Origin: Candidatus Rokuibacteriota bacterium
GTDB lineage: Bacteria; Methylomirabilota; Methylomirabilia; Rokubacteriales; CSP1-6
Reading direction: 5' to 3'
NCBI GenBank assembly: GCA_005887895.1
Contig: VBPC01000272.1
Coordinates: forward strand, 5,561-69,560
DNA length: 64,000 nt
Shown here: positions 6,941-14,506 of the stretch, piece after piece
How positions within the stretch are numbered: position 1 is the stretch's first letter
How the letters are laid out: every line of letters begins with the position of its first letter
Made by a program: the position numbers and the translations under genes
The notes under the pieces: generated by a model
Seen by the model: the letters and a program-made list of their open reading frames with translations, nothing else
What the model was told of the DNA's origin: nothing
The model's database searches: none

Positions 6941-7300
6941 TTGTCTTTCGTGTCCCCGCCCGGCTCCGGGCCGCTCCAGGCGTTCAAGGCCGAGTTCTTC
7001 AAGGCGCTGGCCCATCCGCTCCGCATCCGGATCCTCGAGCTCCTGATCGGCGGCGAGCGCAGCGTCCTCGAGCTCCAGCGCGCGCTGGACGCCGAGCAGC
7101 CGATCGTCTCCCAGCAGCTCGCCGTGCTGCGCGCCAAGCGGATCGTGCGGGCGCGCAAGGAGGGCACCACCGTCCGCTACGCGGTCGGCGACCCGGAGAT
7201 CCGCGCGCTGCTCGAGGCCGCCCGCCGGATCTTCAACAACCAGCTGATCGGCAGCCGCAGCATGCTGCGCGAGCTGGCCCGCGAGCGGCGGCGGCGCTAG
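6941..7300 (+). CDS. ArsR/SmtB-family transcriptional regulator
   Basis: 119 aa. FKALAHPLRIRILELL and QPIVSQQLAVLRAKRIV form a winged-HTH ArsR signature. The start is TTG 6941 or GTG 6950. The stop TAG shares one nucleotide with the next gene's GTG. Confidence 0.85.
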   Translation: MSFVSPPGSGPLQAFKAEFFKALAHPLRIRILELLIGGERSVLELQRALDAEQPIVSQQLAVLRAKRIVRARKEGTTVRYAVGDPEIRALLEAARRIFNNQLIGSRSMLRELARERRRR

Positions 7301-7815
7301 TGCTGCTCTTCTCGAAGATCCTCCGCACCGGCCTGGCGACCGAGCCGCTGATCGCCGGCGACGACACCCTGCTGACGCTCGCCCGCGAGGTGGAGGCGCG
7401 CACCCGGCGGCTGCTCGGCCGGGCGCTGGCGATCCGCGAGGTCGACGCCGGCTCCTGCAACGGTTGCGAGCTGGAGATCACCGGGCTCATGAGTCCCGTG
7501 TACGACAGCGAGCGCTTCGGCATCCACTTCGTGGCCTCGCCGCGCCACGCCGACCTGCTGCTGGTCACCGGCCCGGTGACCCGCAACATGGAGGTGCCGC
7601 TGCGCAAGACGTGGGAGGCGACGCCCGATCCCAAGCTGGTCGTGGCCGTCGGCGACTGCGCGCGGACGTGCGGCGTCTTCCGCGGCAGCTACGCGATCGT
7701 CGGCAGCGTGGACGCCGTGGTGCCGGTCGACGTGTTCGTCGACGGCTGTCCGCCCGAGCCCGCCGACATCCTGCGCGGCATCCTGGCCGCGCTCGGCCGG
7801 CGGCCGGGACGCTGA
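7300..7815 (+). CDS. NuoB / group-4 hydrogenase small-subunit-like FeS protein
   Basis: 171 aa. Four Cys are spaced for one 4Fe-4S cluster: GSCNGCELE, GDCARTCG and VDGCPP. Confidence 0.85.
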   Translation: MLLFSKILRTGLATEPLIAGDDTLLTLAREVEARTRRLLGRALAIREVDAGSCNGCELEITGLMSPVYDSERFGIHFVASPRHADLLLVTGPVTRNMEVPLRKTWEATPDPKLVVAVGDCARTCGVFRGSYAIVGSVDAVVPVDVFVDGCPPEPADILRGILAALGRRPGR

Positions 7816-7828
7816 CCGCGGCGCGCCG

Positions 7829-11476: not shown

Positions 11477-11483
11477 GCCGGCG

Positions 11484-12935
11484 ATGAGCTTCGCGCTCCT
11501 GCTCGTCCCCTCGCTCCTCAGCGCGCTGCTGGCGCTGGTCGTGCGCCCCTACCGCGCGGCAGTCGGCTGGGCGAACGCGGCGCTGTCGCTGGTGGCCGTG
11601 GCCGGCGCGATCACGCTGTGGGTCCGGGTGCTGCGCGGCGAGGTGCCGGTGGCCGGCGCCGACGGCCTCTTGCGGGCCGACGCGCTCTCCACGCTGCTGG
11701 CGCTGTGCGTGAGCGGCGTGGCGGCCCTGGCCGCCTGGCTCGGCCCCGGGCTCGGCGACGACGGCTGGGGCGCGCGCCAGGCGCGCCGCTTCCGCATCTT
11801 CGCCAACCTCTTCGCGTTCACGATGCTGTTCGCGGTGACGACCGACAACGTCGGCTTCATGTGGGTCGCGATCGAGGCGACCACCATCACCTCGGCCGTG
11901 CTCATCCCGCTCCACGCCAGCAAGGCTTCCGTCGAGGCCTCGTGGAAGTACGTCCTCATCGGCTCGGTCGGCATCGCGCTGGCCTTCGCCGGCACCGTGC
12001 TGGCCTACTTCGACTTCGTCACGCTGATCGGGCGGGAGGCGGTCGCGCTCAACTGGACGGTGCTGCAGGACGCGGCGCCCGCGCTCAACCCGCGCGTGAT
12101 CCGGCTGGCGTTCGTCTTCATCCTCATCGGATACGGCACCAAGGCCGGGCTGGCGCCCATGCACACCTGGCTCCCCGATGCCCACTCCGAGGCGCCGCCG
12201 GCGCTGAGCGCCATGATGTCGGGCGTGCTGCTGGCGGTGGCGCTCTACGCCGTCGTCCGCTGGCAGGCGGTCGTGCGGGTCACGGTAGGGACGGGCTTCG
12301 CCGAGGACGTCATCGTGCTGCTGGGGGTGCTGTCGCTGGCGATCGGCGCGCTGAGCCTGGTCGCCCAGCGCAGCTACAAGCGCCTGCTCGCCTACTCCAG
12401 CATCGAGCACACGGGGCTCATCTGCGTCGGTCTCGCCCTGGGACCGCTGGGCGTGTTCGCGGCCATGCTGCACCTGCTCAACCACAGCGTCGCCAAGTCG
12501 ATGATGTTCCTGCTGGCCGGCCGCGTGCTGCGCCGGTACGGTACCGCCGAGATCGAGGGCGTGTCCGGTCTGCTGCGGGTCATGCCGTGGACGGGCGGCT
12601 TCTTCGCGGCCGGCATGCTGGCGGTGATCGGGCTGCCGCCGTTCGGGATGTTCGTCTCGGAGTTCGCGCTGGTGCGGGCCGGCTTCGCGGCCGGGCGGCC
12701 CGTCCTCGTCGCGGTCGTGCTCATGCTGCTCGCCGTCGGCTTCGTCGGCGTCCTCGTACACCTCAACCGCATGCTCTACGGGCGGCCGCCCTCCACCGTG
12801 ACGCTCGGCGAGAGCAGCCGGTGGGCGCTGGTGCCGCTCGGCGGCTGCCTGGTGGCGCTGGTCGTGCTGGGCCTCACGCTGCCGGCCGCCATCGACGGCC
12901 TGCTCGTGCGCATCGTGGCGATCGTGGCGCCATGA
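11484..12935 (+). CDS. HyfF/HycQ/NuoN-like antiporter-type membrane subunit
   Basis: 483 aa. GYGTKAGLAPMHTWLPDAHSEAPPALSAMMSG is a NuoM/N-type motif. Confidence 0.85.
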   Translation: MSFALLLVPSLLSALLALVVRPYRAAVGWANAALSLVAVAGAITLWVRVLRGEVPVAGADGLLRADALSTLLALCVSGVAALAAWLGPGLGDDGWGARQARRFRIFANLFAFTMLFAVTTDNVGFMWVAIEATTITSAVLIPLHASKASVEASWKYVLIGSVGIALAFAGTVLAYFDFVTLIGREAVALNWTVLQDAAPALNPRVIRLAFVFILIGYGTKAGLAPMHTWLPDAHSEAPPALSAMMSGVLLAVALYAVVRWQAVVRVTVGTGFAEDVIVLLGVLSLAIGALSLVAQRSYKRLLAYSSIEHTGLICVGLALGPLGVFAAMLHLLNHSVAKSMMFLLAGRVLRRYGTAEIEGVSGLLRVMPWTGGFFAAGMLAVIGLPPFGMFVSEFALVRAGFAAGRPVLVAVVLMLLAVGFVGVLVHLNRMLYGRPPSTVTLGESSRWALVPLGGCLVALVVLGLTLPAAIDGLLVRIVAIVAP

Positions 12936-14506
12936 GCCTGCCGGACGCGCTGACGACGGCGCTGGCGGCCGCGGTGCCCGCCGCGCGCGACGTTCGGGTC
13001 GTGCGCGGGCGCGAGCTGCACTGCACGCTGCCGCCCGACGCGGTCCCGGCGCTGAGCCGGCTCCTCACCGGCGACCTCGGCGCCGAGCTGCGCCTGATGC
13101 TGGCGAGCGACCGGCGGGCCGAGCGCGGCGTGTTCGAAGCGCACTATCTCTTCGGGCGGGCGCGCGCCGACTGGTTCGTGCACGCCACCGCGCCGCTCGA
13201 CGCCGCCGCGCCGGCCGTGCGCTCGCTGGCCACGCGCCACTACCCGGCCTCGCGCTTCGAGCGGGAGATGGCCGATCTCTTCGGCATCGCCGCCGTGGGC
13301 CATCCCGATCCGCGCCCGCTCGTGCGCCACGGGTTCTGGCCGGCCGACTGGTTCCCGCTGCGCAAGGACGCGGGCCCTCGCGAGTTCCACGACGACGGCC
13401 AGCCCTTCCCGTTCCAGCAGGTGGGCGGCGAGGGCGTCTACGAGATCCCGGTGGGGCCGGTGCACGCCGGCGTGATCGAGCCGGGACACTTCCGGTTCAG
13501 CGTGCTGGGCGAGACGATCATCGACATGAAGGTGCGCCTCTACTTCACCCACAAGGGCACCGAGAAGCTGTTCGAGGGCCGCCGGCCGGCCGACGGCGTG
13601 CGCCTGGCCGAACGCGTCTCCGGCGACACGACGGTTGGCCACGCGCTGGCGTTCTGCCAGGCCGTGGAGGCGGCGGCCGGCGTGGCGGCGCCCGCCCGCG
13701 CGCGCTGGCTGCGCGTCGTGCTGCTCGAGCTCGAGCGCCTGTACAACCACGTCGGCGACGTCGGCATGATCCTCAACGACACCGGGTTCGCCGTCGCGCA
13801 TTCGCACTGCTTCCGGATCCGCGAGCGGCTCCTGCGGCTCAACAAGCGCGTGACCGGCAATCGCCTGCTGCGCGGCGGCCTCGTGCCGGGCGGCGTGACG
13901 ATGGAGGCGCCGGCCGGCGTCGACGTCGCCGGCGAAGTGGACGCCGCCGTGCGCGACTTCGACGAGATCGTCGGCCTCAGCCTCGGCAACACGCTGGTGG
14001 CCGATCGCCTCGACGGCACCGGGCGGTTGACCCTGCGCACCGCGCGCGACCACGGCGTGCTGGGCCCGGTCGCCCGCGCCTCCGGCATCGACGCCGACGT
14101 GCGCCGCGATCATCCGTTTGCCGCCTACGCCGAGCTGGCGCCACGCGTGGTGGTGCACGAGAGCGGCGACGCGCGGGCCCGCACGCTCGTGCGCGTCGAG
14201 GAAGCGCGCGAGTCGGCGCGGCTCATCCGCCGGGCGCTGGAGACGCTGCCGGCGGGACCGCTGGCCGTCGAGATCGATCGGCTGCCCGCCGGTGGGCCGG
14301 CGTTCTCGCTCGTGGAGGGCTGGCGCGGCGCGATCGTGCACTGGGTGCTGGCCGACGAGACCGGCGCGCTGGCGCGCGTGAAGGTGCTCGACCCGTCGTT
14401 CCTGAACTGGCCCGCGCTGTCCTATGCGCTGCTCACGAACATCGTTCCGGACTTTCCGCTGTGCAACAAGTCGTTCAATCAGTCGTACTCCGGCAACGAT
14501 CTCTAG
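12932..14506 (+). CDS. Fused NuoC-NuoD / HycE-like large subunit lacking the NiFe-binding cysteines
   Basis: 524 aa from ATG 12932, with an ATGA overlap. The N-terminal 30-kDa (NuoC-like) domain is followed by a 49-kDa/large-subunit domain (GPVHAGVIEPGHFRF). The expected E-R-x-C-G-x-C-x3-H motif reads ERVSGDTTVGH. The C-terminus reads DFPLCNKSFNQSYSGNDL, with no CxxC. Confidence 0.85.
   Translation: MSLPDALTTALAAAVPAARDVRVVRGRELHCTLPPDAVPALSRLLTGDLGAELRLMLASDRRAERGVFEAHYLFGRARADWFVHATAPLDAAAPAVRSLATRHYPASRFEREMADLFGIAAVGHPDPRPLVRHGFWPADWFPLRKDAGPREFHDDGQPFPFQQVGGEGVYEIPVGPVHAGVIEPGHFRFSVLGETIIDMKVRLYFTHKGTEKLFEGRRPADGVRLAERVSGDTTVGHALAFCQAVEAAAGVAAPARARWLRVVLLELERLYNHVGDVGMILNDTGFAVAHSHCFRIRERLLRLNKRVTGNRLLRGGLVPGGVTMEAPAGVDVAGEVDAAVRDFDEIVGLSLGNTLVADRLDGTGRLTLRTARDHGVLGPVARASGIDADVRRDHPFAAYAELAPRVVVHESGDARARTLVRVEEARESARLIRRALETLPAGPLAVEIDRLPAGGPAFSLVEGWRGAIVHWVLADETGALARVKVLDPSFLNWPALSYALLTNIVPDFPLCNKSFNQSYSGNDL

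Follow-up and report, generated by a model that had tools for sequence, protein, structure and literature searches.

The Ehr (energy-converting hydrogenase-related) complexes, whose name was reportedly coined for Geobacter and of which Marreiros et al. reportedly made a survey in 2013, are among the closest known relatives of a seven-gene operon found at positions 6941-14506 of the plus strand in a 64 kb stretch of DNA (72% G+C) from a Candidatus Rokuibacteriota bacterium (contig VBPC01000272.1); this whole stretch is referred to here as the window. Complexes of this type are related to the group 4 hydrogenases, lack the Ni-Fe ligands, are widespread and have no assigned function (PMC6349859, PMC10284858). 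The Mycobacterium tuberculosis genes Rv0081-Rv0087 have been placed among the EHR complexes (PMC6728331), whereas other tuberculosis papers describe the locus as a putative [NiFe]-hydrogenase or formate hydrogenlyase (FHL), and the operon is part of the hypoxia and stress responses of that organism (PMC6901956; bioRxiv 10.1101/465575). Its regulator, Rv0081, is devoid of cysteines and of a metal site and acts as repressor of the operon to which it belongs (bioRxiv 10.1101/465575). These publications already cover both the family and the assignment of the M. tuberculosis locus to it, and the window adds no new kind of system. With a probability of roughly 0.6, we read the region as a self-contained Ehr operon which encodes a six-subunit, complex-I-like membrane machine together with its own Rv0081-type repressor, the machine acting as a redox-driven ion pump.

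Genes were assigned with Pfam and NCBIfam profiles on the translated genes, and seven closely spaced genes were found, an ArsR-type regulator and six complex subunits, all on the plus strand. The ArsR/SmtB helix-turn-helix regulator (6941-7300; Pfam HTH_5, NCBIfam NF033788) stands first and is followed by a small subunit resembling NuoB, HycG and HyfI (7300-7815; Oxidored_q6, E 2.6e-31), a HyfB-like, antiporter-like membrane subunit of the NuoL class (7829-9874; NF005086 'hydrogenase 4 subunit B', 689 bits against a curated cut-off of 667) and a membrane subunit resembling HycD, HyfC and NuoH at the junction of both arms (9876-10817; Pfam NADHdh, E 5.5e-41). The operon is completed by a HyfE-like, NuoK-related membrane subunit (10820-11476; NF008556 'hydrogenase 4 membrane subunit', E 1.5e-26, with Oxidored_q2 on the C-terminal half), a HyfF-like, antiporter-like membrane subunit of the NuoM/N class (11484-12935; NF005044 'hydrogenase 4 subunit F', E 2e-123) and a HycE-like large subunit in which NuoC and NuoD are fused (12932-14506; Pfam Complex1_30kDa, NiFeSe_Hases and Complex1_49kDa). 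The profile assignments agree with the ArsR-headed six-subunit gene order that the original prediction had given from the sequence, and the tight or overlapping junctions described there were measured, in order, as a 1-nt overlap at 7300, gaps of 13, 1, 2 and 7 nt, and a 4-nt overlap at 12932-12935. Gaps of 1-13 nt leave no room for further small membrane genes.

The HyfE-like gene starts at ATG 10820 after a GAGG, a start codon that the mechanical listing of open reading frames had missed. Codon-position G+C (GC3) periodicity was observed to indicate plus-strand genes without a break from about 6000 to 14500, and the ratio of nonsynonymous to synonymous substitution rates (dN/dS) against orthologous loci was 0.13-0.39 for the seven genes. 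By these two measures, each of the seven is a real gene kept under purifying selection. When GTDB was scanned with one genome per species, 80 related loci were obtained, all of which are collinear with the window, the shorter orders being due to contig ends. Since the order is never rearranged in these 80 loci, the arrangement is not one of chance.

The former active site of the large subunit has lost its metal ligands. When this protein was aligned with Escherichia coli HycE, RVCGICGFAH was found to be replaced by RVSGDTTVGH and SLDPCYSCTD by SFNQSYSGND, such that all four Cys ligands of the Ni-Fe site are exchanged (C to S, T, S and G). Selenocysteine in place of cysteine was considered and ruled out; the frame is uninterrupted and the four positions hold Ser, Thr, Ser and Gly. 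The protein stops at ...SGNDL, the position at which HycE is cut by the maturation protease HycI, and has no C-terminal extension. Among 81 orthologs, the motifs 'LAER.SGDT..GH' and 'NIVPDFPLCNKS.NQSYSGNDL' were found to be at least 95% conserved, and an exhaustive search returned dozens of 50%-identity cluster representatives, most of which again have SGD(S/T) and SY(S/A)G. Judged from this conservation, the former active site is under constraint and the polar motifs R-x-S-G-D-T and N-x-S-Y-S-G-x-D now occupy the place of the Ni-Fe centre.

The top solved-structure match of the large subunit is HycE (7Z0S_E, E 1.4e-71), which is also the top fold match of its structural model (TM 0.74), with NuoCD next by both sequence and fold; no Ehr structure was found in the PDB by these sequence and fold searches, so HycE and then NuoCD are the nearest known structures. 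In a neighbour-joining tree of 129 large subunits, the clade that holds the window protein has 93-95 leaves, these being cluster representatives with 0-1 residual cysteines each except for one leaf with 3, none of them intact, and the 4-Cys enzymes form the sister clade. The window protein was thus not placed among the group 4 hydrogenases with an intact Ni-Fe site. The Ehr type which the original prediction had assigned is borne out by the loss of all four cysteines and by the same substitutions in Rv0087.

In the small subunit, the cysteines of SCNGCE, GDCA and GCPP are kept in at least 95% of 53 orthologs, and its four cysteines align with the [4Fe-4S] ligands of HycG and of NuoB, where they bind cluster N2. 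The protein shares 47% identity with E. coli HycG and has no counterpart of the stretch of about 85 residues by which HycG and HyfI are extended at the C-terminus. The peripheral arm is thereby shown to be made of a NuoB-like subunit with an intact [4Fe-4S] site and a fused NuoC/NuoD-like subunit.

The residues involved in transport are also retained in the membrane arm. The HyfB-like subunit, which is 40% identical to E. coli HyfB over residues 75-673, keeps Glu146 in transmembrane helix (TM) 5, Lys228 in TM7, Lys259 in TM8 and Glu412 in TM12, equivalent to E144, K234, K265 and E407 of NuoM. The HyfF-like subunit, 42% identical to E. coli HyfF, keeps TM5 Glu131, TM7 Lys220 and TM12 Glu393. 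In the HycD-like subunit (36% identical to E. coli HycD), the acidic motifs EYSG, AE.GR and DNP.THLEL are at least 95% conserved among orthologs, and the membrane-embedded Glu residues in LEN and VELG of the HyfE-like subunit are conserved as well. The alignments thus show a membrane arm of one NuoH-like, one HyfE-like and two antiporter-like subunits with intact Glu/Lys transport residues. In comparisons across phyla, the peripheral-arm and NuoH-like subunits were observed to be better conserved than the antiporter-like ones.

Subunits which feed electrons into related complexes were not found. Searches with tblastn for HycF, NuoI, HycB, HyfA, HyfH, NuoA and NuoJ gave nothing at E < 0.1 in the 64 kb of the window, HyfJ likewise had no tblastn match there, and in the related loci none of the first seven queries matched within an Ehr cassette. 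Homologs of the maturation proteins were sought by tblastn for HypA, HypB, HycI and HycH, to which this search was confined, and none was found in the window or the related loci. NuoE, NuoF and NuoG domains were absent from Pfam scans of the window, and formate dehydrogenase (FdhF) from Pfam scans of the flanking genes, on which its absence is judged. These results agree with the earlier claim that the module lacks a NuoI/HycF-type subunit, HycB and formate dehydrogenase, and no such input subunits were observed to lie just outside the related cassettes either. Because the Ni-Fe cysteines, the maturation peptide and the Hyp, HycI and HycH proteins are all missing, the product is an Ehr-type complex and not a hydrogenase. 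The only protein of Fe-S dicluster type seen in the window, a CCG-domain/4Fe-4S protein resembling GlpC, LutA and HdrD (36726-38081, plus strand), is encoded 22 kb from the operon and is no homolog of NuoI or HycF.

As a positive control, the same tblastn search was found to detect a HycF-like domain in a 4-Cys hydrogenase cluster which adjoins the Ehr cassette in two acidobacterial metagenome-assembled genomes (MAGs). In these genomes (loci L072, 11820-19154, and L073, 11810-19075), a Hyf-like cluster of the order HyfB-HycD-HyfE-HyfF-large-small lies directly downstream of the cassette, with all four cysteines in its large subunit (RICGVCSVAH and ELCYSCTD) and with a HycF/NuoI-like domain fused to the N-terminus of its small subunit. 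A true hydrogenase and its cysteine-less relative thus stand side by side, and the contrast between the two implies that, in that lineage, the loss of the Ni-Fe site accompanies the loss of the 2x[4Fe-4S] wire.

The regulator and all six subunits were present in 45 of the 80 related loci, and in 44 of the 53 loci with enough upstream DNA the small-subunit gene is immediately preceded by an ArsR gene. By their MAG labels, some of which may reflect binning errors, the hosts belong to Rokubacteria/Methylomirabilota, Binatia, Acidobacteriota, Chloroflexota and 'Deltaproteobacteria', with one cyanobacterium (Cyanosarcina radialis, L079). The closest homologs of the large subunit are 73-98% identical and come from soil and groundwater metagenomes, those with a name being Rokubacteria, Methylomirabilota and NC10; the Joint Genome Institute (JGI) names these homologs hydrogenase 3 subunits. 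The original prediction had suggested a widely distributed, uncharacterised module: the occurrence in several phyla supports the first part, but the novelty was overestimated as Ehr complexes had already been described (PMC6349859, PMC10284858).

Some loci or bins hold more genes or cassettes than the window. A second, consecutive HyfB-like gene was observed in nine loci (L007, L008, L012, L019, L026, L028, L059, L060 and L069), where the doubled genes encode proteins about 56-72% identical to the HyfB-like subunit of the window and the complexes would have three antiporter-like subunits. Two full cassettes were observed in each of two bins (L001 and L002 in QHRW01; L042 and L056 in CAWGVS01), which suggests recent duplication or strain mixtures. 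One locus with the doubled gene, L007 (DATIWG010000006.1), comes from an archaeal MAG labelled Nitrosotalea sp., and its proteins are 59-84% identical to those of the window (76% for the large subunit); most likely this is a binning error rather than an archaeal Ehr complex.

A known counterpart of the operon is the M. tuberculosis locus. Mycobacterial contigs were reached through the Rv0081 sequence (6JMI alignment), and two of them, an M. tuberculosis-type contig (L081) and one of M. riyadhense (L083), were found to carry seven genes like those of the window in identical order and orientation. In L081 these are ArsR, Oxidored_q6, Proton_antipo_M (640 aa), NADHdh (316 aa), a 220 aa protein, Proton_antipo_M (488 aa) and Complex1_30kDa/49kDa (491 aa), and the arrangement in L083 is the same. 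Identities between window and mycobacterial proteins are 46-49% for the regulator, 59-61% for the small subunit (Rv0082), 47% for the HyfB-like (Rv0083), 52-53% for the HycD-like (Rv0084), 38% for the HyfE-like (Rv0085, HycP) and 39-42% for the HyfF-like subunit (Rv0086, HycQ), and 51% for the large subunit (Rv0087, hycE). The large subunit is cysteine-less in both, Rv0087 having the motifs ERISGDTSAAH and SFNQSYAGNDL, and the regulator is cysteine-free in both organisms. The match to the Rv0081-Rv0087 order, which had been proposed earlier, therefore holds in both contigs at 38-61% identity and, by synteny and identity, the window operon is to be taken as the ortholog of Rv0081-Rv0087 in a Rokubacteria/Methylomirabilota-like soil bacterium. 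The flanks differ, M. tuberculosis having Rv0079 and Rv0080 upstream and the polyketide-cyclase-like Rv0088 downstream (L081), whereas in the window the cassette lies between an F420-class LLM gene, on its upstream side, and a collagen-like gene. In a further M. tuberculosis-type contig (L082, 9875-10724; SRR7851365), the NuoH-like gene is cut to 74 residues and an Rv0088-like gene follows it directly, so that this strain appears to have lost the remainder of hycD along with hycP, hycQ and hycE. This deletion hints that the complex is dispensable under some conditions.

The regulator resembles Rv0081 more closely than any other protein of solved structure. Rv0081 (6JMI) was its top match at E 5.7e-20 and the next ArsR protein followed at 1e-13, six orders behind. 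The protein contains no Cys and a single His, and therefore lacks cysteine ligands altogether, and neither alpha3 nor alpha5 metal ligands were observed; it is assigned on these grounds to the Rv0081-type non-metal ArsR/SmtB family. Cysteine is likewise absent from 37 of 39 cassette-linked ArsR proteins, which share the motifs FKAxFFxALAHPxRI and SQxLAxLR and are recognisable by these as a cysteine-free subfamily.

A single sigma-70-like site was predicted within 5500-15200, where dinucleotide shuffles gave 0.2 such sites. It consists of a -35 hexamer TTGAAC (6913-6918, plus strand) and, 18 nt after it, a -10 hexamer TATATT (6937-6942, plus strand) which overlaps the TTG at 6941. Because of this overlap, the regulator may start at GTG 6950 rather than at TTG 6941, and the predicted promoter, with a transcription start expected near 6949, suggests an mRNA that is leaderless, or nearly so, with GTG 6950 as its start codon. 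Between the two hexamers, a perfect 16-bp palindrome, ATATGAATATTCATAT, was read from the sequence at 6922-6937 as a putative ArsR-type operator. Its TGAA-N2-TTCA core is one that we take to resemble ArsR/SmtB operators. The palindrome occurs once in the window even when 3 mismatches are allowed, had 0 matches in 100 shuffles, and was found as an identical copy upstream of the ArsR gene in locus L002. Most related loci, including those of other phyla, have a TTGAC-type hexamer followed by AT-rich or ATAT-type repeats upstream of the ArsR gene. No one palindrome common across phyla was found by k-mer counts and inverted-repeat scores in 45 upstream regions, in which the best inverted-repeat arm had a mean of 6.8 matches versus 5.6 in shuffles. 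Upstream DNA also differs between the two orthologous operons, M. tuberculosis having TATCT and TCTTC elements (bioRxiv 10.1101/465575; visible in L081) where the window has the palindrome. For the M. tuberculosis operon, regulatory inputs from DosR and MprA have been described. On the model published for Rv0081 (bioRxiv 10.1101/465575), the ArsR protein would bind the palindrome between -35 and -10 and repress its own operon by promoter occlusion, and a non-metal signal would lift the repression.

For the complex itself we propose a mechanism that would neither make nor use H2. A soluble low-potential carrier, probably of the ferredoxin type and encoded elsewhere, would dock at the place of NuoI and reduce the single [4Fe-4S] cluster directly. 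The electron would then pass to an acceptor in the remodelled pocket where the large, small and HycD-like subunits meet, and the accompanying conformational and electrostatic change would push H+ (or Na+) through the four membrane subunits, which resemble HycD, HyfE, HyfF and HyfB, much as happens in complex I and FHL. The reaction may also run in reverse.

Several points weigh against the preferred reading of the operon. Direct docking of a donor on a single-cluster complex is an assumption, and we know of no experimentally characterised precedent for a single-cluster complex that has no electron wire. When all flanking open reading frames within 6 kb were clustered over the 80 loci, no conserved electron-partner gene was found to accompany the cassette in general, and neither donor, acceptor nor substrate could be identified from the cassette or its neighbours in these loci. 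The Tyr which serves as quinone ligand in complex I (Nqo4 Tyr87, RIEY in E. coli) aligns with Gly and the alignment of the His in the beta1-beta2 loop, which is HycE-like (IEPGHFRF), is uncertain; there is hence no positive sign of quinone reduction. The AlphaFold2 monomer of the large subunit has a mean predicted local distance difference test score (pLDDT) of 68 with values below 50 at residues 131-208, 355-395 and 489-524, and as these surround the former active site and the interfaces, the model is silent on the pocket and was used for the fold search alone. The large-subunit tree was built by neighbour-joining without bootstrap and has Rv0087 as its sole named Ehr reference. Finally, the promoter and operator are predictions made from consensus and sequence. 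In the literature searched, neither Rv0082-Rv0087 nor any other Ehr complex was found to have been characterised biochemically.

The main rival, which we consider unlikely, is that the complex no longer passes electrons and translocates ions independently of redox chemistry or is gated by it: an Mrp-like cation/proton antiporter or a device for pH homeostasis, in which the [4Fe-4S] cluster and pocket would sense, or open the gate in response to, redox state, O2/NO or a small ligand. The complex has lost both the Ni-Fe site and the 2x[4Fe-4S] wire while its antiporter machinery is fully retained, the 80 loci show no linked gene for a donor or an acceptor, and the M. tuberculosis operon takes part in hypoxia and stress responses (PMC6901956; bioRxiv 10.1101/465575), all of which would suit a gate. 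The large and small subunits are however the best conserved and the former active site is near-invariant, which speaks for a catalytic or ligand-binding site rather than a passive cap, although conservation would be expected of a sensor site too. Known Mrp antiporters also function without NuoB- or NuoD-like subunits. Sequence does not decide between pump and gate; the redox-driven pump remains our preferred reading.

A second alternative takes its cue from the gene next to the operon. At 5978-6895 on the plus strand lies an F420-dependent LLM-class oxidoreductase (TIGR03619, 181.9 bits versus a cut-off of 166.9), which ends 45 nt upstream of the operon on the same strand and which could, in a stripped-down F420H2-linked (Fpo-like) complex, deliver electrons or use the product. 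The gene passes its family cut-off and is also found with the cassette in L001 and L002, so that both cassettes of bin QHRW01 have it. These two closest relatives and the window are nevertheless the sole cases among the 80 loci, the operon has its own predicted promoter in the intervening DNA, and the mycobacterial neighbour Rv0080 had no NCBIfam match, F420-related or other. LLM enzymes are soluble substrate oxidoreductases and, to our knowledge, do not serve as docking modules. An F420-linked complex is therefore very improbable.

That the operon encodes a true [NiFe]-hydrogenase of group 4 or a formate hydrogenlyase, the reading given by the automatic annotation 'Ni,Fe-hydrogenase III large subunit', is refuted at the level of sequence and deserves next to no credence. 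The best E. coli match of every subunit is indeed a Hyc or Hyf protein, the JGI names point to hydrogenase 3, and the tuberculosis papers speak of a [NiFe]-hydrogenase or FHL (PMC6901956; bioRxiv 10.1101/465575). Against this stand the replacement of the four cysteines, a frame with no in-frame stops for selenocysteine, the missing C-terminal maturation peptide, the failure to find homologs of HycF, HycB, HyfA, Hyp, HycI and HycH, the position in the cysteine-less clade of the tree and the real 4-Cys paralog right beside the Ehr cassette in L072 and L073. The idea of a decaying, functionless hydrogenase remnant, to which the loss of catalytic residues and accessory subunits might point, is the least credible of all and is refuted by the conservation data, namely seven intact and tightly coupled frames, dN/dS of 0.13-0.39, collinearity in 80 loci of several phyla and conserved replacement residues.

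A broader proposal, which is speculative and in our estimate improbable, is that the seven genes form a unit common to, and perhaps exchanged among, at least 5-6 phyla, and that this unit encodes a single-cluster redox- or ligand-gated ion translocator for low-energy or hypoxic conditions. Were this true, the complex would be neither a classical oxidoreductase nor a plain antiporter and would work by a principle of which the complex I superfamily offers no described example; the constant lack of linked partner genes would be explained as well.

The function of Ehr complexes is an open question of bioenergetics, and it bears on M. tuberculosis because the copy in that organism, Rv0082-Rv0087, belongs to its hypoxia/dormancy response and is often called a hydrogenase or FHL. 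The present comparison sharpens this question. Cysteine-less motifs, the [4Fe-4S] site and the transport residues are kept from mycobacteria to Rokubacteria, Acidobacteriota, Chloroflexota and a cyanobacterium; the wire is absent from the Ehr cassettes and present in the L072/L073 hydrogenase; no partner is linked, and the regulator travels along (44/53). Three of these features were not found stated in the literature searched: the co-inheritance of an Rv0081-type regulator with the complex across phyla, the consistent absence of a NuoI/HycF-type subunit, and the conserved replacement motifs at the former active site. The conserved features are concrete targets for mutagenesis, for binding tests on the palindrome and for a structure of the complex.

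Among the flanking genes of the 80 loci, the largest cluster was found to be a TPM-domain (PF04536) protein, which lies downstream of the cassette in 15 loci and is not encoded in the window. It was observed in L014 (6471-7805), L033 (7275-8687), L038 (3509-4921), L020 (2274-3686) and 11 further Rokubacteria loci, and in the loci listed here the gene begins a few to a few dozen bases past the large-subunit gene, in the same orientation. In that Rokubacteria sub-lineage, the operon may thus have an eighth gene. The large subunit of a CoxL-like molybdenum hydroxylase is encoded just upstream of the cassette in five Rokubacteria loci (L030, L032, L036, L042 and L053). In the window, an AAA (MoxR/CoxD-like) gene and a VWA CoxE-like gene were found at 18432-20760, about 4 kb downstream of the operon, which may be coincidence.

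The downstream flank in the window encodes a secreted TIG/collagen-like protein, a PEP-mutase-family enzyme and an M48 peptidase. The first of these (14697-15711, plus strand) has a signal-peptide-like N-terminus, a weak, sub-threshold TIG match and collagen-like G-x-y repeats, and its gene is broken into two frames which overlap (14697-15470; 15004-15711) where a 63-bp/9-bp tandem repeat lies (15129-15278). The break is due either to a frameshift or to faulty assembly inside the repeat. In the upstream flank, the minus strand of 2712-5598 carries a Cu/Zn superoxide dismutase (2712-3236) and, beside it, two M20-family peptidase paralogs in tandem (3236-4438; 4432-5598), and a citrate synthase lies at 1066-2268; no link of these genes to the operon is apparent. 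Two sigma-54-dependent response regulators are encoded elsewhere in the window, in keeping with the earlier remark that the organism contains sigma54. The sole Rfam match over the window was a tRNA at 41279-41350, with none near the operon.

Compared with other known systems, the operon shares parts of several machines. The subunit set differs from that of an Mrp antiporter (MrpA-G), as there are only two antiporter-like subunits and a NuoK-related one in addition to the NuoB-, NuoCD- and NuoH-like subunits. Complex I (NDH-1, nuoA-N) has homologs of NuoB, NuoC, NuoD, NuoH, NuoK and NuoL/M/N in the window and differs in that NuoE, F, G, I, A and J are absent and that identity to NuoCD is 25%. 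The Pyrococcus furiosus complexes MBS/Mbx (6U8Y) and MBH (6CFW), respiratory machines of complex-I-like build, have the same NuoB, NuoD and NuoH core, MBS being a group 4 derivative that no longer makes H2. They are more distant (6U8Y_L, E 1.4e-28; 6CFW_L, E 1.8e-32, versus 1.4e-71 for HycE), and the NuoI-like ferredoxin subunit and the full Mrp module which both of them possess are not present in the window cassette.

The E. coli hyf and hyc operons correspond to the window one-to-one in HyfI/HycG, HyfB, HyfC/HycD, HyfE, HyfF and HyfG/HycE at 32-47% identity. Hydrogenase-4/FHL-2 (hyfABCDEFGHIJ) and hydrogenase-3/FHL-1 (hycBCDEFG; 7Z0S) however have HyfA/HycB, HyfD, HyfH/HycF, HyfJ, HycI and FdhF, which the window lacks; the small-subunit gene is the first of the complex in the window, and the regulator is of the ArsR repressor type, in contrast to the sigma-54 activators HyfR and FhlA of E. 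coli. With the Ehr complexes of Geobacter and Margulisbacteria, the likeness is one of description rather than of sequence comparison. Some published Ehr loci have been discussed with linked formate dehydrogenase and NuoE/F-like genes (PMC6349859), whereas none is linked in the window or in the 80 loci. In their build, Ehr complexes in general match the operon in having a group-4-related large subunit devoid of Ni-Fe ligands, a NuoB-like small subunit, and a membrane arm of NuoH-like and Mrp/Nuo antiporter-like subunits.

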